Of a DNA stretch of 64,000 bases, positions 5,764-44,244 are shown one piece after another. The stretch covers positions 71,486,001 to 71,550,000 of the forward strand of contig OZ024740.1 in NCBI GenBank assembly GCA_964016885.1, in the 5' to 3' direction. The notes beneath the pieces are model-generated. The model saw only the letters and a program-made list of their open reading frames with translations, made no database searches and had not been told where the DNA came from. This DNA comes from Eledone cirrhosa (lineage: Eukaryota). The position numbers and the translations under genes were made by a program. Within the stretch, counting starts at the first letter, position 1. Each line of letters opens with the position of its first letter.

Positions 5764-6372
5764 TATAACGGCGGCGAAGATTCAAAACCGAATCTGAGCT
5801 CTCCCGCCTCTGGGGCAAGCCGTGGTAAGTTGTTTACGCTCAAGAGACTAACCCCTTGGGAGAGGCTAAACACAGGTCAGAGGTGTTTATGCCTGACAGA
5901 AAATAGGTCAGAGGATATATCCATCTTTCTGACTTGTTTACGCTTGGCAAACTAATCCCTTGGGAGACTCTAACCAAAGTTCAGAGGATATATCTATCCT
6001 TCTAGCTTTAACTCTTATAAATACAGGGGTTGTTTACGCCCCGACAGAAAAGGACAAGACAAGTCGCATTTACAAGCTCTCACGAAAAACCAGTCTGTCA
6101 CTTATTCTCACCTTCCTGGCTGATCGCTGACTCCTACTACTAAAACAAGCAAATATACTGATACGCACACGCATTCATAGTGAGTTCACACTGTTTGTAT
6201 TTTCACACACACCATTTCTGTTTATACATATTGTATCTTTCGGATACAGTACAAATTATATTATAACCATATTCTGTGATACTTGTATTTAAGTGGCTCG
6301 AGAGCCTCCAAATTATTGTACGAATATTTCGTGTTATCGATTTTATCATTCAATATTCAAATTGAATATTGT

Positions 6373-9300
6373 TATAGCGGAATGCTAGCGCGTATGAATG
6401 TAACAAGGAGACATGGTTTGTGTGTATAATATTTAATCAACAATTTAACAGTATAGTTGACATGTCAATGAATAAACGAAAGAATGAAGCAAAGTTAGTA
6501 GTTACCGTTTTGATTGCCAGGCAAACGCGGCTGGCAGAAGACGCCTGGCGAAGGCCAGGCGCCGGAAGGGCAAATGAGAGGGTAAGAACTTAAAGTTGTT
6601 AGTTTTATAGGGTTCTGACCGGAAGTTACAGAAAGGGTTCTACTTCCTGTCTAGATGGTGTTAATCTATTGGGGTTGTGAGTGTCACAACCAGGGAGACA
6701 ACGCCTGCTACATAACCTCCCGCCAGAATTTTAGAATATAAAAATCGAATGAAATATGTATGCAGCAGGTTGGCGAGAATGTTGTAACAGGCATGAAAAT
6801 TACGACAAAAAAAATAATGTTTGCAAAAATCAATGATAGATATCAAGGTAGCCAACCGCTCTTGGCCAGAGAACGACTGGACATCTATCTATCCATCACC
6901 CAAAGATACAATGTAATAAAGTAAGAGAAGAGCTCAAAGTTCAAATGTACAAAATATAGTTCACAGGTGTGCAATCACATGACAGCAGGAAAGAAAGTGT
7001 GTTCCAGAGAATGAATGCAGGTGGTTTCTGTTCTGTGGTATATCGTGAAATTTCCAACCTCCGAATGGATTTTCTCACAGGAAGAGTGCTGCAAAAATAA
7101 ATTCTCTGGCTTGTTCTGCTGGTTTTGGTTGTTGGTGAAGCTGTGTTGCTGTTGATGTCTCGCGGAGTGAGCGTATTCGGTGTTTAAATTCACAGTAAAA
7201 AAAAAAATTTTTTTTTCAGAAAAAATGAGTTGCGCAAAGTGTTAGAAATAACAGCCGAAGTTGATGGTCGATGTTGAGAATGCGTTGACCTGGAAGAGTC
7301 AAGAGGTCAGCGACCAAAGAAATAAGCATTCTGAATAAACGCGCAGTTTTCAACGGCAAATTTACGTGGTAAATTTTTAAACCGGCAAATAGGAGAATAT
7401 AGCTTAAGGCTGAAGAATCCTTGGCGAGAAACGTTATCTCTGGCGTGCGGCTATCTCTGTGAGTCAAGATATCTCCGTGAGTTGAGAATTTGTGCTGCCT
7501 ACACGTGCCAATACAAGGTTAAGTTAGGTTGAAAAAATAATATTTCTAACGCGCGAGAAAATGATAGTGCAAGTGTGAAAGTGACAATGATGAAAAAGAA
7601 AGGCTTCACTTAGCATAATTATTGGTGTGAACTTTTGAAAAAAAAACTTGAACGATGAAGAAAACGATGAAAAAAAAAGGCAATGGTTCATCGAAAATAA
7701 ATGTTCCTGTTGAAATGTTTTTAAAAAAAAAAATATCAAATTTCTTTTTTTTTTTGTTTTGAAAGTGTTCGTTGTAAGAAACGAGAAACATATATATATA
7801 TATCGTGGAATGCGACAGTTAGTTGATGCGTGAGAGAAAAAGTCTGTCTGAACGCGAATTTCACATGTGCGTGGTGTGTTCGTTTCTTGGAGAAACACAT
7901 ATATATATACAGCAAACTGCGACAGTTAGTGGATGCGTGAGGGAAAAAGAGTGTCTGCACGAAAGTTTCACATGTGCGTGTGTGCGTTTCTTTGACTGAG
8001 TATGTTCATAGTTTGTCAATAAATTTGCTGTGTATTCGTAATGTTACTCACACAACACCAGATTCTGCTATTTTTTCTTTTTTCGGGGTGACCACTTATA
8101 ACAATGAACGGCTGCGTGTTCGTATCACGTCAGGGTCAGGTCACCAATATATCGGGATACTGGGTTGTATGAATGTGTAGCGGTTGTCTCCCTTGTTTTG
8201 ATTGGGATCTAGACGGGAAGTGGAACCCTTTCTGCAACTTCCGGTCAGAGCCCTATAGAACTAACAACTTTAAGCTTCCTTTCTCTCTTTGCCTTTTCGG
8301 CACCAGGTCGAAGAGCCTCTCATTTGGCTCTGCCATTAATTTGGCCAACAGGCGCCTGGCCTTAGCCAGGCGCCCTCTGCCAGCCGCGTTTCCCTGGCAA
8401 TCAAAACGGTAACTACTAACTTTGTTTCATTCTAACATCTATCTTTGACATGTCAAGTATTCTATCTACCGTTAATTAAATATTATATACACAAACATTG
8501 TCTCGTTTTGTTACATTCATACAACCCAGTATCCTCGCTATATTGGTAACCCTGACGTGATACGAACACGCAGCCGTTCATCGCTATAAGGGTCACCCCC
8601 AAAAAAAGAAAAAAATAGCACATCTGGTTTTGTGAGTAACATTACGAATACACAGCAAATTTAGCGACAAACTATGAAAATACTCAAGGACACGCACACA
8701 CGCACATGTGGAATTCGCACAGACATACTTTTTCTCTCACGCATCAATTAACTGTCGCATTTCACCAATATATATATATATGTTTCTCGTTTCTTACAAC
8801 GAACACTTTCAAAACAAAAAAAAAAATTTCACGATATATATATATGTTTTTCGTTTCTTACAACGAACTCTTTCAAAACACACAAAAAAAAAGGGGGAAA
8901 TTTGATATTTAAAAAACATTTCAACAGGAACATTTATTTTCGATGAACCATTGCCTTTTGTTCTTCGTTTTCTTCATCGTTCAAGTTTTTTTTTTTTTTT
9001 TTTTTTCAAAAAGTTCACACCTATAATTATGCTGATTGAAGCCTTTCTTTTTCATCATTGTCACTTTCAAAATTGCACTATCATTTTCTCGCGCGTTAGA
9101 AATATTTTTTTTTCAACCTTGTATTGGCACGTGTAGGCAGCATAAATTCTCGATTCACTGAGATGTCTCTACTCACAGACAGCCGCACGCCATTTATCAC
9201 CAGGGATTCTTCAGCCTTAAGCTATATTCTTCTATTTGCCGGTTTATAAATTTACAATGTAAATTTACCGTTGATAACCGCGCATTTATTAAGAATGCTT

Positions 9301-10596
9301 ATTTCTCTGGTCGCTGGCCTCTTGACCCTTCCAGGTCAACGCATTCTCAACATCGACCATCAACTTCGGCTGCTATTTCTAGCACTTTGCGCAACTCATT
9401 TTTTCTAAAAAAAAAATTTTTTACTGTGAATTTAAACACCGAATACGCTCACTCAGCGAGACAACAGCAGCAGCAACAGCAATATAACAGCAACAGCAAT
9501 ACATCAACACAGCTTCACCAAAGCCAGAGAATTTATTTTTGCAGCACTCTTCCTGTGAGAAAATCCATTCGGAGGTTGGAAATTTCACGATATACCACAG
9601 AACAGAAACCACCTGCATTCATTCTCTGGAACACACTTTCTTTCCAGCGGTCATGTGATTGCACACCTGTGAACTATATTTTGAACTTTGAGCTCTTCTA
9701 TTACTTTTACTTTATTACATTGTATCTTTGGGTGATGGATAGATGGATGTCCAGTCGTTCTCTGGCCAAGAGCGGTTGGCTACCTTGATATCTATCATTG
9801 ATTTTTCCAAACATTCTTTTGTCGTAATTTTCATGCCTGTTACAACATTCTCGCCAACTTGCTACATATTTTCATTTCGATTTTTATACACTAAAATTCT
9901 GGCGGGAGGTTATGTAGCGGTTGTCTCCCTTGTTTTGATTGGGATCTAGACGGGAAGTGGAACCCTTTCTGCAACTTCCGGTCAGAGCCCTATAGAACTA
10001 ACAACTTTAAGCTTCCTTTCTCTCTTTGCCTTTTCGGCACCAGGTCGAAGAGCCTCTCATTTGGCTCTGCCATTAATTTGGCCAACAGGCGCCTGGCCTT
10101 AGCCAGGCGCCCTCTGCCAGCCGCGTTTGCCTGGCAATCAAAACGGTAACTACTAACTTTGTTTCATTCTAACATCTATCTTTGACATGTCAAGTATTCT
10201 ATCTACCGTTAATTAAATATTATATACACAAACAATGTCTCGTTTTGTTACATTCATACAACCTCAGTAATCTCGCTATAAATGTAACAGGGAGACATGG
10301 TTTGTGTGTATAATATTTAATCAACAATTTAACAGTATAGTTGACATGTCAATGAATAAACGAAAGAATGAAGCAAAGTTAGTAGTTACCGTTTTGATTG
10401 CCAGGCAAACGCGGCTGGCAGAAGACGCCTGGCAAAGGCCAGGCGCCGGAAGGGCAAATGAGAGGGTGAGAACTTAAAGTTGTTAGTTTTATAGGGTTCT
10501 GACCGGAAGTTACAGAAAGGGTTCTACTTCCTGTCTAGATGGTGTTAATCTATTGGGGTTGTGAGTGTCACAACCAGGGAGACAACTCCAGCTAAA
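6373..10596 (-). mobile_element. non-autonomous LTR element A (non-coding interior)
   Basis: 3' LTR 6373-6712; 5' LTR 8148-8175 plus 10285-10596; TSD ttgt; PPT ggcgggagg next to 6713; tRNA-Trp complement 8105-8146. Confidence 0.92.
8176..10280 (+). mobile_element. non-autonomous LTR element B, inserted in the 5' LTR of A
   Basis: LTRs 8176-8542 and 9912-10280; TSD aatg; PBS from 8544; PPT 9901-9909; interior homologous to A. Confidence 0.94.
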
Positions 10597-10772
10597 TTGT
10601 TATAATAAAATAAACTTTGTAACAACACAATCCTGGTATTATTCTTTACATTGAAAACCATCATACCAACAATTCATTCTCTCCACTTATCGTTACAACT
10701 ACACAAATATTCCGTTACAACCGGTGACCCCGTAAAACAGACACACAACCTTCTGATCATCCACTACAAACG

Positions 10773-11876
10773 ATGTCTCTAGCACACGACGATTCATCTA
10801 CGGCAGAAATGGTAGTCAGGGCGGCATTTACATTAAGAATTCCACCATTCTGGGTGCACGATCCAACACTGTGGTTCGCGCACATCGAAGCGCAGTTCGC
10901 ATCGAACCGGATCGTTACACATGTCATCGGTTCGATGTCTCCGGAGATTATGAATGAGGTTCGAGAACTCATTTTAGCACCACCCGGCTCTGTGTCATAT
11001 GACACATCTAAAACAACATTAGTTAAGCGGACGTCGGAATCGCAGCAGAAGCGCTTGCACCAGCTCCTTATATCGGAGGAATTAGGAGATAAAAAGCCGA
11101 CACAATTCCTAAGGCGAATGAAGCAGCTCCTGGGAGAAAATAAACTCCAGGATGAAATTTTCAAGCAACTCTTCCTCCAGCGTTTGCCTTCTGCCACACA
11201 AGTTGTACTAGCATCCAACAGGGAGTCCACCACCATAGAAGAACTCGCCGAGCTGGCAGATAAGATCATGGAGGTACCACATCCGCACTCAACTTTAGCG
11301 AATGTGACGCCAGCCGTACCTCCCACCAATCCTTTCCTTCAGCCCTCCAGTGCCACAGAGATGCCCAATCTACACCTGTTACTGGCACAGCAAGCAACAC
11401 AGATACAGGCCTTGACGCAACAAATTCAGGCCTTGTCACTGGGCAACCCTGCCACGCGTCGGTCCAACAGTCGAACTCGCCGATTTGATGGTCGCTCAAG
11501 AAGTCCGAGCGCATCTCGGGATTCACCAGAAATGTGTTGGTACCACCAAAGATTCGCGAGACGAGCGCGAAAGTGCAGTCATCCCTGTTCATTTGTCGAA
11601 TCAGGGAAACGACACAGCCAGAAACTGAATGCGACGGACGTTTCTGGCCCTCATAACCAAAGTCGCCTATTTTTCATTCAGGATCGCATCACAGGCACGC
11701 GTTTCCTGGTCGACACCGGTGCTGAAGTCAATATCATCCCCGTTTCCTGCGTTCCTAGAAAAAGGAGAGAGACACCAGCCTGTGAATCACTCACATATTC
11801 CGACCTAAGGAGAACAGTCCCTGACACTAAATTTGGGACTACGCCGCACTTTCCAGTGGGTATTCGTTGTGGCTAA
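10773..11876 (+). pseudogene. gag: Gypsy gag plus aspartic protease
   Basis: IPPFWVHDPTLWFAHIEAQF N-terminus, CWYHQRFARRARKCSHPC (CHCC) knuckle, FLVDTGAE protease; frame breaks after about 11780. Confidence 0.92.
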
Positions 11877-13148
11877 GCTGCCGACCCCTATTTTAGGAGC
11901 TGATTTTCTTCAGAACTTCTCGCTGCTAGTGGATCTGAAAATCCAACGACTCAGTGACAACTCCACTGGTCTCGCTGTGCGCGGAATAGCCGCTAGGACA
12001 GCCACAGTCAATCCAGTCATTTCACGATCGACAACAACAACCCGGCACAACCACATCATCAACAAACACCCAGACGTAGCTCGACCACTATTCAACGCTT
12101 GCCCTGTAAAACATGACGTCACACACCACATAAAAACACACGGCCCACCTGTCGCTGCACGACCTAGAAGGCTACCACCAGACCGGCTGAAGTCCGTCAA
12201 ACAAGAATTTCAGCACATGCTGGATCTCGGCATCATACGTCCGTCCAGCAGCAACTGGTCCTCACCCATTCACTGTGTACCCAAGAAGTCGTCGAACGAC
12301 TGGCGAATCTGTGCACTGAACAACTGCACCGTTCCTGACTCTTATCCAGTGCCTCATCTACAGGACTTCTCTAGCTCGCTGCACGGGGCTCGCATATTTT
12401 CGAAGCTCGATCTTGTGCGAGCTTACAATCAGATACCCGTTGAGCCCGCAGATATTCCAAAGACCGCCGTCACAACACCCTTTGGAATGTTCGAATTTCT
12501 GCGTATGCCTTTCGGTTTGCGAAATGCAGCGCAGACATTCCAGCGATTCATCGATACAGTCACCAGAGGTCTACCTTTTGTATACGCATACATTGACGAC
12601 TTACTGGTGGCCAGCAGCTCCGATGAAGAACATGAGAAACACCTGGATATCCTATTCACACGTTTGCGTGAATACGGAATTGTTATCAACCCCAGCAAAT
12701 GTGAGTTCGGAGTTGCGTCCCCTCATTTTTTGGGACACATCATTGACAAAGAATGGTATTCGCCCACTTAAGGAGAAAGTCAAATCCATCATTGATTTTC
12801 CACAACCAACATCTCTCCGCAAACTGCGAGAATTTCTTGGCCTGGTAAACTTTTACAGAAGATGTATACCCCACTGTGCAGAGACAGCCCAACCACTCAC
12901 AGATTTGCTGCGGCAGCGTACAACCAAAAACGCAAACATCAAGCTCGGCGAAAAAGAATGTACCGCTTTCGCTGAGTTGAAGAACATGTTGTCCGAGGCT
13001 ACAATGCTGAGTTACCCCAAACCTGACGCCCCAATGTGTTTATTGACTGCATCCGATTTCGGAGTTGGAGGTGTGCTTCAACAAGCGATTAAAACCCGCC
13101 GAAACTAAGTACAGCACATTCAGTCGTGAATTATTGGCAGCATACCTT
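11833..13148 (+). pseudogene. pol: Gypsy pol: RT and start of RNase H, frameshifted
   Basis: [57 protein letters not shown]. Confidence 0.94.
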
Positions 13149-15374
13149 TATAGCGCCCCCTAGACAGGAAGTAGCTGGAGTTACTTCCTGTTGAGGTTAC
13201 AGAACCTTCTTTGTGACTTCCGTCCAGGGAACTATAAAAGGAGAGAGCTGAAAGCTATCTCTCTCTCTTTTCACCTTTCGGCCATCCGCGTTCCGCCGAA
13301 AGTATACTCTCTCGCTTCCTGACTGTGAAAAGGTAAACACCTAACTTTCTTTCGTCGTGAAATCACTAGCCAACATGTAACACAACAACTTAATCACGGC
13401 CTGGCAACATCTCCGCCAGTAGACCGTGCCTCCTGAATTCCTTAATTCGTTGTTTCATCTCTCTTGGCATGTCAACTATTCAGCTCTACTCAGCTCAATC
13501 TTCGTAAATAAATATTGTACATACAAACCGGTGTAATGTTAATTGGTGACCCCGAGGAAAAAATAATAGGATCTGGTGTTGTGTGAATATGGAAAAAAGA
13601 AAATTAATTAGCAGTATTTCAAAAAGAAAAAATTCCTCTAACAACATTCCGCATGGATTTTTTCCTCCGAAATTGTCTACAACGAAAAATAGGAGTAATC
13701 TTTTTCTCAACAGCAAACAAACAAGAACAAATTTTGCTCTTCACCTCACCTGTTTACATCGTTTACATGTGTTTCACTCACTGGATATATCCTTCGTTCT
13801 TCTCACAACGAATACTCAAAAAAAGACTTGGACTCCTGTATTCTTTCTTATATTCAACATGTCAATTTTGATGAACATCACAGCTCGTTTACTCATTCAA
13901 CTAAGCCTTATTCGCTACTTTTTCATCACTTTCACAAAAAAATTAAACTCTCGCCATATTTGTTATACAAAGTGAATATAGCCTTTCATTCTTTTTCATC
14001 ATATTATCACGTTCACACAAATTTTTCAAAATGACCGCCACGACCTGTTCCACTATCATTTTCTCGCGCAATAGAAATATTTTTTTTTTGTTTATTCAAC
14101 TTGACTTTAACCTTGTTTCGGCACGTGTGTGGGAGCACACATCTCGACTCACTGAGATAACACACGCCATAGATAATGTTTCTTGCCAAGAATTCTCCAG
14201 CTTTAAACTATATTCTCCTATTTGCCGGTTTAAAAATTTACCACGTAAATTTGCCGTTGAAAACTGCGCATTTATTCAGAATGCTTATTTCTATGGTCGC
14301 TGGCCTCTTGACCCTTCCAGGTCAACGCGTTCTCAACATCGACTATCAACTTTGGCTGTTATTTCTAGCACTTTGCGCAACTCATTTTTTCTGGGAAACT
14401 TTTTACTGTGAATTGAAACATCGAATAGGTTACCTCACTCCGCGAGACAACAACAACACAGCTTCATCTTTGCTTTATCAACAACCAAAACCAGCAGAAC
14501 AAAACGCAGAGAATTTATTTTTGCAGCACTCTTCCTGTGAGAAAATCCCACCGCCTTCGGAGGTTGGGAATTTCACGTTGTACCACAGTCCAGAAACCAC
14601 CTGCATACATTCTCTGGAGGACACACTCTCTTCCTTGCTGTCATGTGCTTACGTACCTGTTAACTTTATTTTTGAACATTTGAACTTTTTTTAATAACAA
14701 TGTTCGAGCACGTTTCTTTGCTCCTTTGACCTCTTCTTTTAGGTTGATTACATTGTATCTTTGTGTGATGGATAGATAGATGTCCAGTCGTTCTCTGGCC
14801 AAGAGCGGTTGGCTACCTTGATATCTATCATTAATTTTTGCATGCTCATTTTGCTATTTGCTTGCTCATGTTTTGTTCATTCATGTTCTTGTACCTTTTG
14901 CCTTGCTCCTCGTGTTCTCGCTATAATGATTTCATTTGGTCATTCGACTTCTCTTCTGGGAGGGGAGTCCTGTAGCGCTCTCTAGACAGGAAGTAGCTGG
15001 AGCTACTTCCCGTTGAGGTTGCAGAACCTTCTTTGTGACTTCCGTCCAGGGAACTAAAAAAGGAGAGAGCTGAAAGCTATCTCTCTCTCTTTTCAGCTTT
15101 TGGCTTCTGGCCTTCGGCCATGCGGGTTCCCCCGAAGGTATACTCTCTCGCTTCCTGACTGTGAAAAGGTAAACACCTAACTTTCTTTCGTCGTGAAATC
15201 ACTAGCCAGCATGTAACACAACAACTTAATCACGGCCTGGCAACATCTCTGCCAGTAGACCGTGCCTCCTTAATTCGTTGTTTCATCTCTCTTGGCATGT
15301 CAACTATTCAACTCTACGCAGCTCAATCTTCGTAAATAAATACTGTACATAGAACCCTCAGTCACCCTGTTATA
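13149..15374 (+). mobile_element. non-autonomous LTR element C, inserted in the Gypsy RNase H
   Basis: LTRs 13149-13542 and 14971-15374; TSD cctt; PBS tggtgaccccga at 13544; PPT gggaggggag 14958-14967; removing it restores ELLAAYLAVKHF. Confidence 0.94.
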
Positions 15375-16870
15375 CCTTGCTGTCAAGCATTTTTGACACA
15401 TGCTAGAAGTCGTGTGTTCACGATATACACCGACCACAAACCACTAGTGTACGCGTTCAATGCCAAGCCTGACCGACACTCACCCAGGGAGGTCCGCCAT
15501 CTGGACTTCATTTCTCAGTACACTACTGATATTCGGTACATTAAGGGTGCCACCAACTCAGCAGCTGATGCCCTATCGCGCATGGAGCTTAACGCAATCC
15601 ACACCACTGCCACTATCGACCTCCAGAAGATTGCAGCGGATCAACAGAATGACGAGGAACTGCTGCAACTCCGGAAATCATCCTCGAAATTGCAGGAATG
15701 CCCGATGCCCTCTTCTTCGGGTTATATTTGGTGCGATATCTCCACAGGCCACGCGCGCCCATACGTGCCCCAGAAACATCGACGCGACGTTTTCTCGGCA
15801 CTGCATTCTCTGGCTCACCCTGGCGTCCGCGCCTCGCAGAAACTGATGGTTGCCCGCTTTGTGTGGCCCAATATCAACAAGGACACCCGCGAATGGGCTA
15901 GGAACTGTATCGCGTGCCAGAAGGCGAAAATTCACCGGCACATCAAAGCCCCGATCGGTTCTTTCGCAACACCTGATGCACGGTTCCAACATGTGCACAT
16001 AGACATCGTTGGACCTTTGCCTCCTTCTCAGAACTACACTCATCTTCTCACCTGTGTCGACCGATTTTCTCGCTGGCCAGAAGCTTTTCCCCTGACGGAT
16101 ATTACTGCGGAAACTGTCGCCAAAATGCTAGTGTTTCACTGGGTTTCGCGTTTCGGCACACCCGCGACCATCACTACGGATAGAAGACATCAGTTCGATT
16201 CGCACCTATTTACCGAGCTGACTCGTCTCCTCGGGTGAAAACACATCCGTACAACAGCGTATCACCCTGCCGCTAACGGCATGGTAGAACGCTTCCACCG
16301 CCAGCTAAAAGCATCTATCAAGGCTTACGAAGACTCCACTAACAGGTTCGAATACCTCCCACTCATTCTTCTTGGTATTCGTTCCACTGTTAAGGAGGGA
16401 ATCGGACATTCTCCGGCTGAAATGGTGTATGGCACCGTACTCACTCTACCCGGACAAATGATCGCTCCTGTTTCGCCACAAGAACTTCCAGACCCAACAA
16501 AATATGTGCACCGTTTACGGTCATCGATGTCACATCTGTCTCCTTCAGCCCCTAAACAAAAGCACGTTACTTCACACATACCAAAAGACATCGATACATG
16601 AACGCATGTTTTCGTTAGAAATGACGGTATTCCATCGCAACTTCGTCCGCCGTATTCCGGGCCCTATAAGGTGATACAGAAACGCCCTAAGTATTTCGTC
16701 CTTGACTTGAACGGTAAATGAAATACCGTCTCCATTGATCGTTTAAAAAAAAGCGTTGATAGAACAGGAATTGCCACCAGTACCCACCGTTTCTCCAGCA
16801 GACTCGCCAACAACTTTGCCCGACACACCAAATCTGGAAGAACAGTCCGATGGCCCACGCGATACGTACA
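15375..16870 (+). pseudogene. pol: Gypsy pol: RNase H end and integrase, with stops
   Basis: [14 protein letters not shown]...CIAC zinc motif, HIDIVGP, ITTD, NGMVERFH. Confidence 0.94.
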
Positions 16871-17283
16871 AGTTTATCGGGTAAGTACAAATTATGCATC
16901 TGGTCGACATTTCGGCTAATTCGTACATTTCAACGAATCGGCCTATTTCTGTGGTCATGAACTATTGCTACACACAAATCAATTAACTCTGTGCATCACC
17001 CACATCAAAAGAACATTTTTCCGTTTCTATGAAATGAACGAACTTTTAATCAACAAACTTTTTGTACGAACATTTTCAATTTTATGTAACATCACAGTAC
17101 ATTTTTCTGCATGTAAATTTCTTTTGCTTTGCATGTTTTCTTTCATTTCTCCTGTTTGTAAATGACTTTCATGTGTTTTTTTTTTTTACTGATTTTCTTC
17201 AACAACACACCTAGTCATACCTATCTTCATTTCACATGCACCTAGATCGTTCAATCTTAGCTTTCTCACTGGAAGGGGGGTAC

Positions 17284-17999
17284 TATAACGGCAGCGAAGA
17301 TTCGAAACCGAATCTGAGCTTTCCCGCCTCTGGGACAAGCCGTGGTAAGTTGTTTATGCTCAAGAGACTAACCCCTTGGGAGAGGCTAAACACAGGTCAG
17401 AGGTGTTTACGCCTGACAGAAAATAGGTCAGAGGATATATCCATCTTTCTGACTTGTTTACGCTTGGCAAACTAATCCCTTGGGAGACTCTAACCAAAGT
17501 TCAGAGGATATATCTATCCTTCTAACTTTAACTCTTATAAATACAGGGGTTGTTTACGCCCCGACAGAAAAGGACAAGACAAGTCGCATTTACAAGCTCT
17601 CGTCACGAAAAACCAGTCTGTCACTTATTCTCACCTTCCTGGCTGATCGCTGACTCCTACTACTAAAACAAGCAAATATACTGATACGTACACACGCATT
17701 CATAGTGAGTTCACACGCACCATTTCTGTTTATACATATTGTATCTTTCGGATACAGTACAGATTATATTATAACCATATTCTGTGATACTTGTATTTAA
17801 GTGGCTCGAGAGCCTCCAAATTATTGTACGAATATTTCGTGTTATCGATTTTATCATTCAATATTCAAATTGAATATTGTTATAATAAAATAAACTTTGT
17901 AACAACACAATCCTGGTATTATTCTTTACATTGAAAACCATCATACCAACAATTCCTTCTCTCCACTTATCGTTACAACCACACAAATATTCCGTTACA
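17284..17999 (+). repeat. Gypsy 3' LTR
   Basis: tataacgg...ccgttaca, preceded by the PPT. Confidence 0.95.
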
Positions 18000-19395: not shown

Positions 19396-21294
19396 TTAAC
19401 CTGTATGTGTTTTCATATGTCTATTTAGGCCAGAACTTTGAGAAAAGCATTTTCCACATATTTGACAGTGAAATGGCTTCTCACCTGTATGTGTTCTTTT
19501 GTGACTTTTTAAACCAGAAATCCGAGAAAAATATTTCCCACATACTTGACAATAAAATGGTTTTTCTCCTGTATGTATTCTGACATGCACCTTTAGATCG
19601 GATGTTTTGAGAAAAGCTTTGTCACATGTTTCACAACGAAATGGCTTTATTTCTGCGTGTACATAAACATGTTTTTTCAGTTCATTAAGCATAAAAAAGG
19701 ACTCCTCACATACTTTACAGGGAAATGGTCTTTCATGATTATGGTCATTTTCATGCAAACCTAATTCAGATTTTGTTGCAAAACTCTTACCACAAATAAT
19801 GCAAAGGCATGAATTTTCTTCCATATGAGCTATAGTGTCAGCTTTTAAATCAGAGGCTTTAAGGAACTTTTTGTCACATAATTGACATTGAAATTGCTTT
19901 GTGCTCTTCTCATGTCTTTTTTTATGAATACGTAGATTATAATTTGTAGAAAACTTTAGGCTACATATATCACATGGGTATGGTTTTTCTCCTGTGTGTA
20001 ATCTATTGTGTAACTTTAGAACAGAACTTCTTGTAAAATGCTTATCACAAACTTTGCATTGAAATGGTTTCTCTCCTGTATGTGTTTGGGTGTGCAAGTT
20101 TAAATTACAGCTAGTGGAAAAACTTTTGCCACATATTTCACAGTGATATGGTTTCTCCCCAGTGTGAGTTCTTGTATGAACCTGTAGATGAGAACTTGTA
20201 GAGAAACTTTTTCCACAAATCTCACAGGAAAATGGTTTTTCTCCAGTGTGTATTCGTTTGTGTAATTTGAGGTTTTGACTAGCAGAAAATCCTTTATTAC
20301 ATACATCACAATAAAGTAGTTTTTCTCCAGTGTGCTTTCTTGTATGTAATCTAAGTACAGATTTAGAGGAAAATTTTTTATCACAAGTAAGACAGTGATA
20401 AGGTTTTTCTCCAGTGTGTGTTTGAGTATGAAGGTTGAGGTTGTAATTTGTAGAGAAACCTCTACCACATATTATACAATGAAATTCCCTCTCACCAGTG
20501 TGTATTTTCTTGTGTACATCTAATTTATATGTTGTGTAAAAACTTTTATTGCATACCTCACAGCAATGTGACTTCTTACCACTATGGGTTTGTAAGTGCA
20601 GCCTTAATTCTGATTTTGTTGAAAATCCTTTCCCACAAAGTTTACAGTGAAAAGATTTTTCACCAGTGTGTACTTTTATATGCAAATTTAATTTATAGTT
20701 TGTTGTAAAACCTTTGCCACACATCTGACAAGAGAAAGGCTTTTCTCCTGTATGTGTTCTTGTGTGTATCTTCATTTCAAATTTCTCAGAAAAGCATTTT
20801 CCACATATCAAACAGCGAAATGGTTTTTCCCCAGTGTGTGTCCTAATGTGTCTTTTCAGAACAAAACTACTACAAAAATGCTTGTCACATAATTTACAAG
20901 AGAAAGGTTTTTCTCCTGTATGCGTCATCATGTGCCTTTTCAAATGTGAACAAGTTGGAAAACATTTCTTACATAGCTTACAAGGAAAAGGTTTTTCTCC
21001 AGAGTGTGTTTTATTATGTACCCTAAGAACTGATTTTCTTGCATATCGCTTATCACATAGTTCACATTGAAATGGCTTTTCTCCTGTGTGAGACCGCATA
21101 TGTATCAGTAGTTCGGATTTCTTATGGAACTTTTTTTCACACAATTCACAGCATATTCGCTTTGTTTTGTGTCTTTTTGTAGATATCATTTTTTTCTTTA
21201 TTAACACATTTGTTTTTGGAGTTGTTGGTTTGTTTTCATCCAGTTCCCCCTGGGAATCATTTGAAGTTACACTCAATGAATTTTTCTCTGTCAT
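19396..21294 (-). CDS. C2H2 zinc-finger protein, 632 aa, 21 tandem fingers (finger 16 degenerate), no recognisable effector domain
   Basis: Uninterrupted ORF of CxxC-x12-HxxxH repeats with TGEKP linkers; candidate splice acceptor ttttcag at 21715-21721; AATAAA near 19295 on the minus strand. Confidence 0.95.
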   Translation of the reverse strand: MTEKNSLSVTSNDSQGELDENKPTTPKTNVLIKKKMISTKRHKTKRICCELCEKKFHKKSELLIHMRSHTGEKPFQCELCDKRYARKSVLRVHNKTHSGEKPFPCKLCKKCFPTCSHLKRHMMTHTGEKPFSCKLCDKHFCSSFVLKRHIRTHTGEKPFRCLICGKCFSEKFEMKIHTRTHTGEKPFSCQMCGKGFTTNYKLNLHIKVHTGEKSFHCKLCGKGFSTKSELRLHLQTHSGKKSHCCEVCNKSFYTTYKLDVHKKIHTGEREFHCIICGRGFSTNYNLNLHTQTHTGEKPYHCLTCDKKFSSKSVLRLHTRKHTGEKLLYCDVCNKGFSASQNLKLHKRIHTGEKPFSCEICGKSFSTSSHLQVHTRTHTGEKPYHCEICGKSFSTSCNLNLHTQTHTGEKPFQCKVCDKHFTRSSVLKLHNRLHTGEKPYPCDICSLKFSTNYNLRIHKKRHEKSTKQFQCQLCDKKFLKASDLKADTIAHMEENSCLCIICGKSFATKSELGLHENDHNHERPFPCKVCEESFFMLNELKKHVYVHAEIKPFRCETCDKAFLKTSDLKVHVRIHTGEKPFYCQVCGKYFSRISGLKSHKRTHTGEKPFHCQICGKCFSQSSGLNRHMKTHTG

Positions 21295-22224
21295 GTCAGC
21301 ACATCAGAAAAGAATTGTTTTGTAGAGTTATATCTACACTTCATGTCAAAACCTACTTTCAGTATGTATTATTGAGGTAAATAATATCTGTTAAGAGAGT
21401 GGAGCCATTTGAAGTAGTTTAATGGGAGGCTATAACTTCTTGGAGAACACTGAAGCTAAGTGGATGCAATATATTTTGCTTTCATTTTTTTTTGCACTGT
21501 ATTAGCCAAGTAAGAGAAAAGAAAACCTCCCCAGGCTTCTGCCACAGAGTTGTTTGTTGATATCTTTCAAGAAAGAATGAGTAAAATGAAATTATGTATA
21601 TAGAACTTCTCCATCATTTGATGTACTTTGGATAAAACTACTGTTTTGGTTTAAAGTCATCTGTTTATTGAATAAAATTACTTCATTTTAAAACATTATT
21701 TCATAATCCACATTCTGAAAATACAAGAACACATTTTTTTAAAATCATTATTTCTAACACTAAGTGGATTGGTTTATTCAATTTCAAATGAAATTTAATT
21801 CTTACAATTCTGTGATTAGAAAATCACAAGATCAGCCTCAACTGACCTTATAAAGGTTGGAAGGGAAGAATGGCACCAACTTTAGACCAACATTTTCAAC
21901 AATTCAACTAAATATCTTACATTTTCAAGACTATTAGGATAGGGAACTAATATACATATAAACATATATAAGAAGTTTGATGCTGCAAGACAAAGAATGC
22001 ACAGTCCCTAAATATTAAGTATTTATATGTATGTAAGGTCCCATAACTCCTAATGGAGTTGTAGGGATGGCGTATTGAGATACAGCGTTTCTAGGGTGTC
22101 TTTTAAAAACTTTGCAGAGCCTATCTCCACTCCAGGTCTGAATACAGTGGCTTTCTTCCAGAGAAGGATAGAGAGAGTGACAGAAAGGAAGTGAGAAAGA
22201 GATATAGAGGAAGAATCGGCTCCA

Positions 22225-36036: not shown

Positions 36037-37245
36037 TTAACCTGTATGTGTTTTCATATGTCTATTTAGGACAGAACTTTGAGCAAAGAATTTTCCACAT
36101 ATTTGACAGTGAAATGGCTTCTCACCAGTATGTGTTCTTTTGTGTCTTTTTAAACCAAAATTCCAAGAAAAGCATTTCCCACATACTTGACAACAAAATG
36201 GTTTTTCTCCTGTATGCATTCTGACATGCACCTTTAGATCAGATGTTTGAAGGAAAGCTTTACCACATGTTTCACAACGAAAAGGCTTTATTTCTGCGTG
36301 TACATAAACATGTTTTTTCAGTTCATTAAGCATAAAAAAGGACTCCTCACATACTTTACAGGGAAATGGTCTTTCATTACTATGGTCATTTTCATGTAAA
36401 CCTAATTCAGATTTTGTTGCAAAACTCTTACCACAAATAATGCAAAGGCATGAATTTTCTTCCATATGAGCTATAGTGTCAGCTTTTAAATCAGAGGCTT
36501 TAAGGAACTTTTTGTCACATATTTGACACTGAAATTGTTTTGTGCTCTTCTCATGTCTTTTTTTATGAATATGTAGATTATAATTTGTAGAAAACTTTAG
36601 GCTACATATATCACATGGGTATGGTTTTTCTCCTGTGTGTAATCTATTGTGTAACTTTAGAATAGAACTTCTTGCAAAATACTTATTACAAACTTTGCAT
36701 TGAAATGGTTTTTCTCCTGTATGTGTTCGAGTGTGTAAGTTTAAATTACAGCGAGTGGAAAAACTTTTACCACATATTTCGCAGTGATATGGTTTCTCTC
36801 CAGTGTGAGTTCTTGTATGAACCTGTAGATGAGAACTTGTAGAGAAACTTTTTCCACAAATCTCACAGGAAAATGGTTTTTCTCCAGTGTGTATTCGTTT
36901 GTGTATTTTGAGGTTGTTTCTAGCAGAAAATCCTTTATTACATACATCACAATAAAATAGTTTTTCTCCAGTGTGCTTTCTTGTATGCAATCTAAGTACA
37001 GATTTAGAGGAAAATTTTTTATCACAAGTAAGACAGTGATGAGGTTTTTCTCCAGTATGTGTTTGAATATGATGGATGAGGTTGTAATTTGTATAGAAAT
37101 ATCTACCACATATTATACAATGAAATCTTTTCTTGCTAGTGTGTATTTTCTTGTGTATATTTAATTTATATGTAGTGTAAAAACATTTATTGCATACCTC
37201 ACAGCAATGTGACTTCTTACCACTATGGGTTTGTATGTCAGCCAT
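36037..37245 (-). CDS. possible truncated 402-aa C2H2 protein (fingers 8-21) from a new ATG
   Basis: Open frame from MADIQTHSG to the same stop as the paralog; ATG context has A at -3 and G at +4. Confidence 0.5.
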
Positions 37246-37657
37246 AATTCTGATTTTGTTGAAAATCCTTTCCCACAAGGTTTACAGTGTATGTCTTAAT
37301 GTGTCTTTTCAGAACAAAACTACTATAAAAATGCTTGTCACATAACTTACAAGAGAAAAGTTTTTCTCCAGAGTGTGTTTTATTATGTATCCTAAGTACC
37401 GATTTTCTTAAATATCGCTTATCACATAGTTCACATTGAAATGGCTTTTCTCCGGTGTGAAACTGCATATGTATCAGTAGTTCTGATTTCTTATGGAACT
37501 TTTTTTCACAGGATATTCACTTTATTTTGTGTCTTCTCGTAGATATTATTTTTTTCTTCGTTGTTAACACATTTGTTTTTGGAGTTGTTGGTTTGTTTTC
37601 ATCCAGTTCCCCTTGGGAATCATTTGAAGTCACACTCAATGAATTTTTCTCTGTCAT
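36037..37657 (-). pseudogene. paralog of the 632-aa ZNF with a disrupted 5' part
   Basis: Same MTEKNSLS start at 37657; CGA>TGA at 37517-37519; finger 3 and fingers 5-6 deleted; frameshifts. Confidence 0.9.
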
Positions 37658-43630: not shown

Positions 43631-43868
43631 TTATTTATACAATAGGAAATAAAATAGATCTACATAGTGTTAACTCGTTACGGTTGAGTCAATAATATCA
43701 GTGAAGGAAAGACAAGATTCTAACTGGCTGCGCTCAAAGTGTTCTTGACCCAGTTGACTGTGGGTTTTTCCATTATTATGGTCTCAATTGCCGATTAATC
43801 TCTAGACACTCCTGCACACCTGCGGTCAGACTATAGTTATGCTGGCTGCATGCTCATTCAAATGCATT

Positions 43869-44244
43869 TATAACAGCGACACTGGGTTGTATGAATATAA
43901 CAAGACACTCTGTTGTATGTACAATATTTATTTAACAAGGTTGAGCTATGTAGAGCAGAATAGTTGACATGCCAAGAGAGATGAAAGGATGAATTAAAGT
44001 TATTTGTTACCGTTTTGAAGTCATCGCGTATTAGACCAAGAGGTCTTTACATTACCATGTTCAGGTTGCCAGAGAGTATACCCTCTGGCAGAACGCGCCT
44101 GGCCGAAGGGCCAGGCAGGTTAAAAGAGAGGGAGACAGCTTTCAGCTCTCTCCTTTATAGGGTCCCTGGACGGAAGTGACAAAGAAGGCTCTGCAACCTC
44201 AACGGGAAGTAACTCCAGCTACTTCCTGTCTAGAGAGCGCTACT
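43869..44244 (-). mobile_element. solo LTR related to elements C and A/B
   Basis: Minus strand starts .gtagcgctctctagacaggaagtagctgg (as at 14971) and ends ctgttata; no clear TSD. Confidence 0.88.

Follow-up and report, generated by a model that had tools for sequence, protein, structure and literature searches.

Aberrant proviruses recovered in retroviral vector studies include some in which an over-long copy of the primer tRNA was joined by faulty second strand transfer; these tRNA inserts are known as single laboratory events and are not known as germ-line families. In HIV-1, according to the available text of PMC8599865, only 18 nt of the primer tRNA are copied before synthesis halts, m1A58 being the plus-strand stop, and a second stop occurs before position 54; read-through does occur, and products that pass 54 are described there as unable to integrate. 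Opposite m1A, reverse transcriptase (RT) places wrong bases as well as the correct T, with incorporation of both dATP and dTTP (PMC4787781). In mouse ETn/MusD elements, the commonest primer-binding site (PBS) carries two mismatches to the primer and revertants are scattered, and the available part of PMC7472051 describes neither a copy longer than 18 nt nor a duplicated tip or PBS. Helenus, Ajax and Cassandra TRIMs are non-autonomous LTR elements with small-RNA-derived sequence, namely a tRNA-like, promoter-like piece inside both LTRs, and animal Helenus has 4-bp target duplications (PMC10886601, available sections). The CsRn1 clade is marked by a tRNA-Trp PBS, a 4-bp target duplication and a CHCC Gag motif; in the available text of PMC2582038 on this clade, no over-long or double PBS was found.

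Here we describe a locus of Eledone cirrhosa, contained in a window of 64,000 nucleotides (71,486,001–71,550,000 of OZ024740.1), together with searches of the 3.0-Gb genome. The window holds two members, A and B, of a retrotransposon family (family 1, or the A/B family) that resembles the mouse elements in having a commonest PBS with two primer mismatches and scattered revertants. The setting resembles that of Ty3 and Ty1, as given in the available part of PMC5371799, in the Ty3/gypsy grouping, the short native PBS (11–12 nt here) and the parental PBS being mostly kept. Unlike HIV-1, 30 of the 31 distinct over-long copies identified here extend past base 22 and were integrated, and the longer copies of families 1 and 3 were amplified. 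A, B and the related element C differ from the CsRn1 clade in being non-coding. Whereas the tRNA-like piece of Helenus, Ajax and Cassandra lies inside both LTRs, that of the A/B family is a 3′ fragment in antisense orientation, confined to the leader and external to the LTR. A Helenus-type TRIM was therefore rejected: the tRNA-like part is absent from all 79 scored 3′ LTRs, and L197 is an exception of other origin.

The nested elements and their leaders

The features, in window coordinates, are as follows.

5764–17999, + strand: host element, probably a CsRn1-like Ty3/gypsy element; coding frames broken; holds A, B and C
6373–10597, − strand: element A, inserted in the host 5′ LTR
8084–8146, − strand: double-PBS leader of A, layout as in B; base 19 at 8123; 5-nt duplication in PBS1
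8176–10280, + strand: element B, inserted in the 5′ LTR of A
8176–8542, + strand: 5′ LTR of B, 97.9% identical to 9913–10280
8544–8561, + strand: PBS1 of B, 18-nt complement of the mature tRNA-Trp 3′ end including CCA; differs at bases 5 and 10
8562, + strand: base 19, facing A58 of the tRNA; A in place of the T predicted from the genes
8563–8575, + strand: presumed read-through copy of tRNA positions 57–45; 13/13 identical to the gene
8576–8580, + strand: filler of 5 nt; pattern searches gave no source
8581–8590, + strand: second LTR (U5) tip (8581–8588) and ancestral AG spacer
8591–8600, + strand: PBS2, the ancestral short PBS, decayed; same downstream internal sequence as the PBS of the single-PBS relatives
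9913–10280, + strand: 3′ LTR of B, purine-rich tract just before; no tRNA copy inside
10722–10758, + strand: host leader, with 11-nt Trp PBS and native box (10749–10758)
13151–15375, + strand: element C, inserted in host pol; single-PBS relative; target duplication CCTT
13544–13555, + strand: the only PBS of C, 12 nt

The host element has all three marks of the CsRn1 clade, namely a PBS of tRNA-Trp type (11 nt), a flanking 4-bp target duplication (CATA) and a CHCC Gag motif, which makes it probably CsRn1-like; its broken frames match DUF7041, RVT_1, RNase H, H2C2 and rve in Pfam. A and B are non-autonomous LTR retrotransposons, each with two LTRs, a PBS, a purine tract and a target duplication. 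In B, the duplication (AATG) is at 8172–8175 and 10281–10284, and an exact 4-bp duplication, as in animal Helenus, is found in 62 of the 70 scorable copies of the A/B family. With the host frames as queries, tblastn gave no match to gag-pol coding sequence in A or B, and the longest frame of B had no Pfam match. The LTR ends at 8176–8182, 10274–10280, 5764 and 17999 read TG...TA, TA...TA or TA...CA and not the usual TG...CA. A solo LTR akin to those of A, B and C lies at 43865–44243 (−).

The leader of B is an antisense tRNA copy that starts from the CCA end directly behind the LTR and is longer than 18 nt. With the genomic tRNA-Trp(CCA) gene L053, CCA end added, as reference, 8544–8575 is identical to the tRNA complement at 29 of 32 bases, the match ending at 8576; the three differences fall at bases 5, 10 and 19 (8548, 8553 and 8562, respectively), the last being A instead of T. 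The CCA complement is present in the leader copy and is encoded by none of the 13 tRNA-Trp genes. An earlier note on this window, made from the letters alone, had described the succession of LTR, tRNA-Trp copy of about 32 nt, second tip and second PBS-like site in B, the same layout in A and a single short PBS in C, all of which we recover. Two details of that description need amending: A in place of T at base 19 is correct but is not the only mismatch, B differing at bases 5 and 10 as well, and the second PBS-like site does follow the tip, although the copy in B lacks its first T and it is the first PBS of A that carries the 5-nt duplication.

We sought a single tRNA gene behind both PBS1 differences and discarded this source, L049 and L040 carrying one difference each. 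Neither ARAGORN nor Rfam reported a tRNA in the window or the leader. For an LTR ending in the filler and tip of family 1, 230 matches were obtained against 74 in the control, and none of the 20 inspected was clear, most being unrelated DNA, with one near match in the family LTR L295; for an LTR ending in the tip of family 2 (see below), one pattern match and one control match were obtained, with no clear donor. A fold-back source for the filler would draw on 4 nt complementary to the tRNA copy, but its 3′ base would be unpaired. A hairpin of PBS1 with the decayed PBS2, acting as an anti-PBS, was likewise set aside as weak (z = −2.84 for B, with 6 of 200 shuffles as good, and z = −1.70 for A). 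The common G-to-A changes in PBS1 (8548 and 8554; two sites only) are both in a TGA context, which a deaminase acting on minus-strand DNA might leave.

Base 19 in the genome and in independent tRNA copies

A 21-nt core pattern was searched across the 3.0 Gb with either A or any other base at base 19. The core with A was found at 564 places and the core with another base at 41 (33 T, 8 G and 0 C; all inspected); the reversed control patterns gave 0 in both cases, which argues that these matches are not due to chance. Of the A matches, the first 100 were examined (98 fetched, the other two being A and B themselves). Of the 33 T matches, 16 are genes or resemble genes, another 16 are CCA-bearing copies that follow the LTR-like ends of other families and one (L338) is ambiguous, with no A/B-family member among them; seven of the eight G matches are family copies. 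Among exact-core copies of the family (n = 571), base 19 is A in 564, G in 7 and T or C in none. All eight A matches that are not followed by G are family copies, so that no tRNA gene with T58 is found among the genome-wide matches to the core, and the 13 distinct Trp genes called by ARAGORN, which were collected via A58 patterns, all have A58. The reading in the earlier note presupposed A58 in the genomic tRNA-Trp genes and a family in which most copies lack the predicted T, and both premises hold. In contigs from three sequencing runs that cover the locus, every alternative letter at 8562 stayed below the 5% threshold; at 8548, G was present at about 22% of the depth in one run.

Genome-wide, PBS matches mostly stop after base 18: among the first 100 of the 262 matches to a 14-nt PBS pattern, which barred C at base 19 and returned copies that are not independent, 77 extend as far as base 18, and T follows at base 19 in 9. 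A cluster at G000:C4:277.40–277.44 Mb (L044–L052) contains tRNA-Trp genes and decayed copies; by anticodon, some of its members are assigned to Leu or Ser.

To compare base 19 among separate origins, we used a pattern open at this base, with T before the PBS excluded, and collapsed the 75 resulting rows into 22 events (T in 16, A in 4, G in 2). Errors are concentrated opposite position 58 across these independent events, although the numbers are small: 6 of 22 are wrong at base 19 compared to 8 of 244 at bases 23 onward (Fisher p = 0.0003; p = 0.0016 without family 2; p = 0.027 if, in addition, the host group is treated as one event). The six changes are transversions without exception, with a template-sense spectrum of 4 T, 2 C and 0 G. 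Wider searches, in which T events were sought more extensively than A or G events, yielded 31 distinct events in Trp-primed families, 22–49 nt long, with T in 25, A in 4 and G in 2. Sixteen of the 31 end at bases 37–42, around G37, five of these ends being set by the host box. In eukaryotic tRNA-Trp, G37 is methylated. One copy, L033, is wrong opposite both 58 and 37, and its error at position 37 was counted as background.

In the host gypsy family, a 40-nt tRNA copy is present in one of the 30 closest copies, the other 29 having no full tRNA copy and keeping the native leader; four more such copies were added for a tree. The tree gives five separate gains, 5 changes being required by starred branches; base 19 is T in three of the gains and A in two, and all five landed on the native box (10749–10758 in the window) that is complementary to tRNA positions 46–37. 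Native imperfect boxes, complementary to the tRNA variable loop and anticodon stem and lying about 20–37 nt after the PBS start, are seen in several Trp-primed families (10722–10758; L267, L276, L277, L280 and L289), and such a box may be either an old read-through fossil or a two-part primer site.

Two further families carry over-long copies. Family 2 is a young 5.75-kb coding gypsy family (L228, at G000:C1:13258500–13268400, and 40 other places), with an independent double-PBS leader in which the 18 nt are followed by an A, a further three matching bases, a tip of foreign origin and then the original PBS. The double-PBS form occurs at 41 places and the single-PBS form at 4, one of the latter being a 14-fold tandem array at G000:C3:346.96–347.03 Mb. 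The 22-nt end of family 2 would fit the second stop before position 54 given in the available text of PMC8599865, as weak evidence, because a length of 22 nt was built into the pattern and an identical sequence might also arise from a short repeat. Family 3 (L094, L110, L065 and L320–L341; 16 loci) has a 29-nt tRNA-Trp copy, with the correct T in all, shortly before a start codon.

Descent of the A/B family and the priming site

The A/B family, with about 570 copies, is young (median LTR identity of 98.8%; at least 99% in 37 of 79). At 86 places, this LTR end is followed by just one short PBS, and most of the 30 inspected are relatives with the same internal start. A tree was built from 900 internal bases of 113 of 134 rows (21 failed the anchor pattern, and 7 long-branch rows are unreliable). 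In this tree, single-PBS copies are basal, followed by double-PBS copies with the AG spacer, an exact PBS1 and an intact PBS2, and then by a derived clade (100% support) with a T spacer, two PBS1 mismatches and a decayed PBS2. A is already present at base 19 in the basal double-PBS copies. Mapped on the tree, the double-PBS label requires 6 changes (23.9 in shuffles), of which 2 are forced, mostly via long-branch rows; hence, a single origin is argued by the identical junction and not by the tree. In the basal double-PBS copies (L069, L081 and L105), the second tip is identical to the element's own LTR end, both tips being the same 10 nt, which indicates that the second tip is the element's own U5 end. 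The 571 exact-core copies and the basal position of the single-PBS relatives fit the proposal in the earlier note that the double-PBS leader propagated as a subfamily.

In all 79 scored elements, a set that omitted L197, L208, L213 and copies with no scorable second LTR, the 3′ LTR ends before the tRNA copy, which suggests that PBS1 primes. L197 consists of three units, and its 3′ LTR includes the tRNA copy and the second tip, with a perfect 4-bp duplication after that tip; thus, priming from a downstream unit is apparently possible, and integration can use the copied tip as its end. L213, with two matches 1737 nt apart, was considered as another 3′ LTR with a tRNA copy and proved to be a tandem element. 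Triple-PBS copies (L197, L208, L225 and L226) have a tandem leader unit of 46–47 nt.

PBS1 is exactly complementary to one of two tRNA genes in 14 of 91 derived-clade matches, which are scattered over the tree, suggesting that the tRNA copy is inherited in a minority of cases (about 15% of the sample), whereas for Ty1 and Ty3 the available parts of PMC5371799 and PMC7472051 report that it is not inherited. The last 20 nt of the LTR (8523–8542 in the window) form a hypervariable U5 tip: LTR pairs differ by 6.9% here vs. about 1% further in, that is, about seven times more. This divergence fits a 5′ tip derived from another template, which is the substrate that tip duplication would require; alternatively, initiation may be error-prone. 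In L073, L312, L281 and L282/L174, an A/B-family leader is fused at the PBS to the LTR of an unrelated family; the two run in line or head to head, and the junction follows exactly 18 nt. Such joins likely reflect co-packaging and offer a lead to the partner that mobilises the A/B family.

Origin of the leader and alternative explanations

Taken with the published behaviour of m1A58, these observations make it likely that the 32-nt leader copy arose by RT read-through of methylated A58 and that its over-long end re-annealed at the LTR tip. Under this scenario, plus-strand synthesis would have run 14 nt past the usual stop, with A placed opposite position 58. The over-long 3′ end, unable to pair behind the 12-nt PBS, would have re-annealed near the U5 tip of a minus strand still carrying U5 and then been extended, duplicating the tip and the old primer site, after which the new 18-nt site would have taken over priming and the old PBS decayed. 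The earlier note had likewise proposed an aberrant second strand transfer that captured a modified mature tRNA, and this proposal gains support from the lack of a matching T58 gene, the 0 of 571 family copies with T, the tree order and the repeated errors at base 19; the plus-strand origin and the transfer onto a U5-bearing minus strand are deduced from their products. Base 19 is fixed, while bases 1–18 revert in a minority of copies, because primer copying can rewrite only those 18 nt and base 19 is the first one beyond them. The T majority among events would fit mixed incorporation at m1A, and under-methylated tRNA would fit it too. Several observations count against read-through with re-annealing. 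The correct T is seen in 25 of the 31 distinct events; the two G events imply template-sense C, whereas C is low for m1A followed by A (PMC4787781); the 5-nt filler is unexplained by the proposed transfer; and yeast Ty1 and Ty3 are reported, in the available text of PMC5371799, not to inherit the tRNA copy. Moreover, the A/B family represents one founding event, so that, from the family alone, an ordinary founder mutation at base 19 is possible.

Such a mutation is the core of one alternative, by which an unmethylated tRNA was read through, T was copied correctly and A arose later in the founder lineage. The correct T in 16 of 22 evenly searched events and at all 16 family-3 loci is what this alternative predicts, and the family did later fix other leader changes (bases 5 and 10 and PBS2). 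Nevertheless, A is already present in the basal double-PBS copies with no T among 571, T-to-A recurs in two separate host-family events and no T-to-C transition is found at base 19, so that we regard a founder mutation as quite improbable. Selection of the long match as a two-part primer site, pairing with the T arm and variable loop and leaving base 19 free because methylated A cannot pair, would leave the duplicated LTR tip and PBS unexplained; furthermore, a free base should vary, yet it is A in 564 of 571 copies, and PBS1 itself has two mismatches in most copies. Such selection therefore appears unlikely, although it could add to read-through with re-annealing and has several points in its favour: the predicted duplex is −56.1 kcal/mol for 32 nt vs. 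−28.0 for 18 nt, native boxes complementary to tRNA positions of about 37–50 exist in the host family and one other family, and Ty1 and Ty3 use two-part sites (PMC5371799, available text). The double form also outnumbers the single one (at least 571 vs. 86 pattern matches, and 41 vs. 4 in family 2), but these counts come from patterns of unequal strictness, and bursts of a single lineage need no selection; the leader samples, moreover, were chosen by exact match to the second segment.

Finally, a piece of a tRNA gene, pseudogene or tRNA-derived SINE could have been captured as DNA, or by a template switch to another RNA, given that tRNA-Trp gene clusters and decayed copies exist in this genome (L044–L052). 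The copy, however, begins with the CCA complement and lies in antisense at the exact end of the LTR, an arrangement that every other event shares, and T58 is absent from the gene-like matches; this origin is already largely refuted and appears extremely improbable.

The chemistry involved is already known from HIV, and every step has a precedent, that for tRNA inserts in aberrant proviruses coming from older work on retroviruses. In the literature that we searched, in which older subscription papers are thinly covered, we found no report of an inherited over-long or double PBS with a position-58 error, of germ-line families so founded or of a genome-wide tally. Whereas read-through in HIV is treated as a dead end, about 30 germ-line integrations and three amplified families, one of them coding, are seen here. 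A genome with about 30 separate read-through events likely keeps a fossil record of tRNA modifications. It is a natural data set on how often a tRNA-copied plus strand is inherited in LTR retrotransposons and on how the enzyme of a retrotransposon itself behaves at m1A58 in vivo, and any assembly can be mined for PBS length and base 19. Far more tentatively, Trp-primed gypsy elements might routinely inherit over-long plus-strand DNA via native boxes, with double-primer leaders being favoured and the genome forming a library of RT signatures, a generalisation that we consider doubtful. If it is true, the library would show stops and errors at 58 and, at 37, a stop with one error, while family 2 would add a possible stop before 54, and tRNA modification states would be readable from genome assemblies alone.

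Elsewhere in the window, two long frames of 84-nt repeats lie within a duplicated segment (19396–21303 and 36037–37281, −) and, judged from the period alone, are likely C2H2 zinc-finger arrays.
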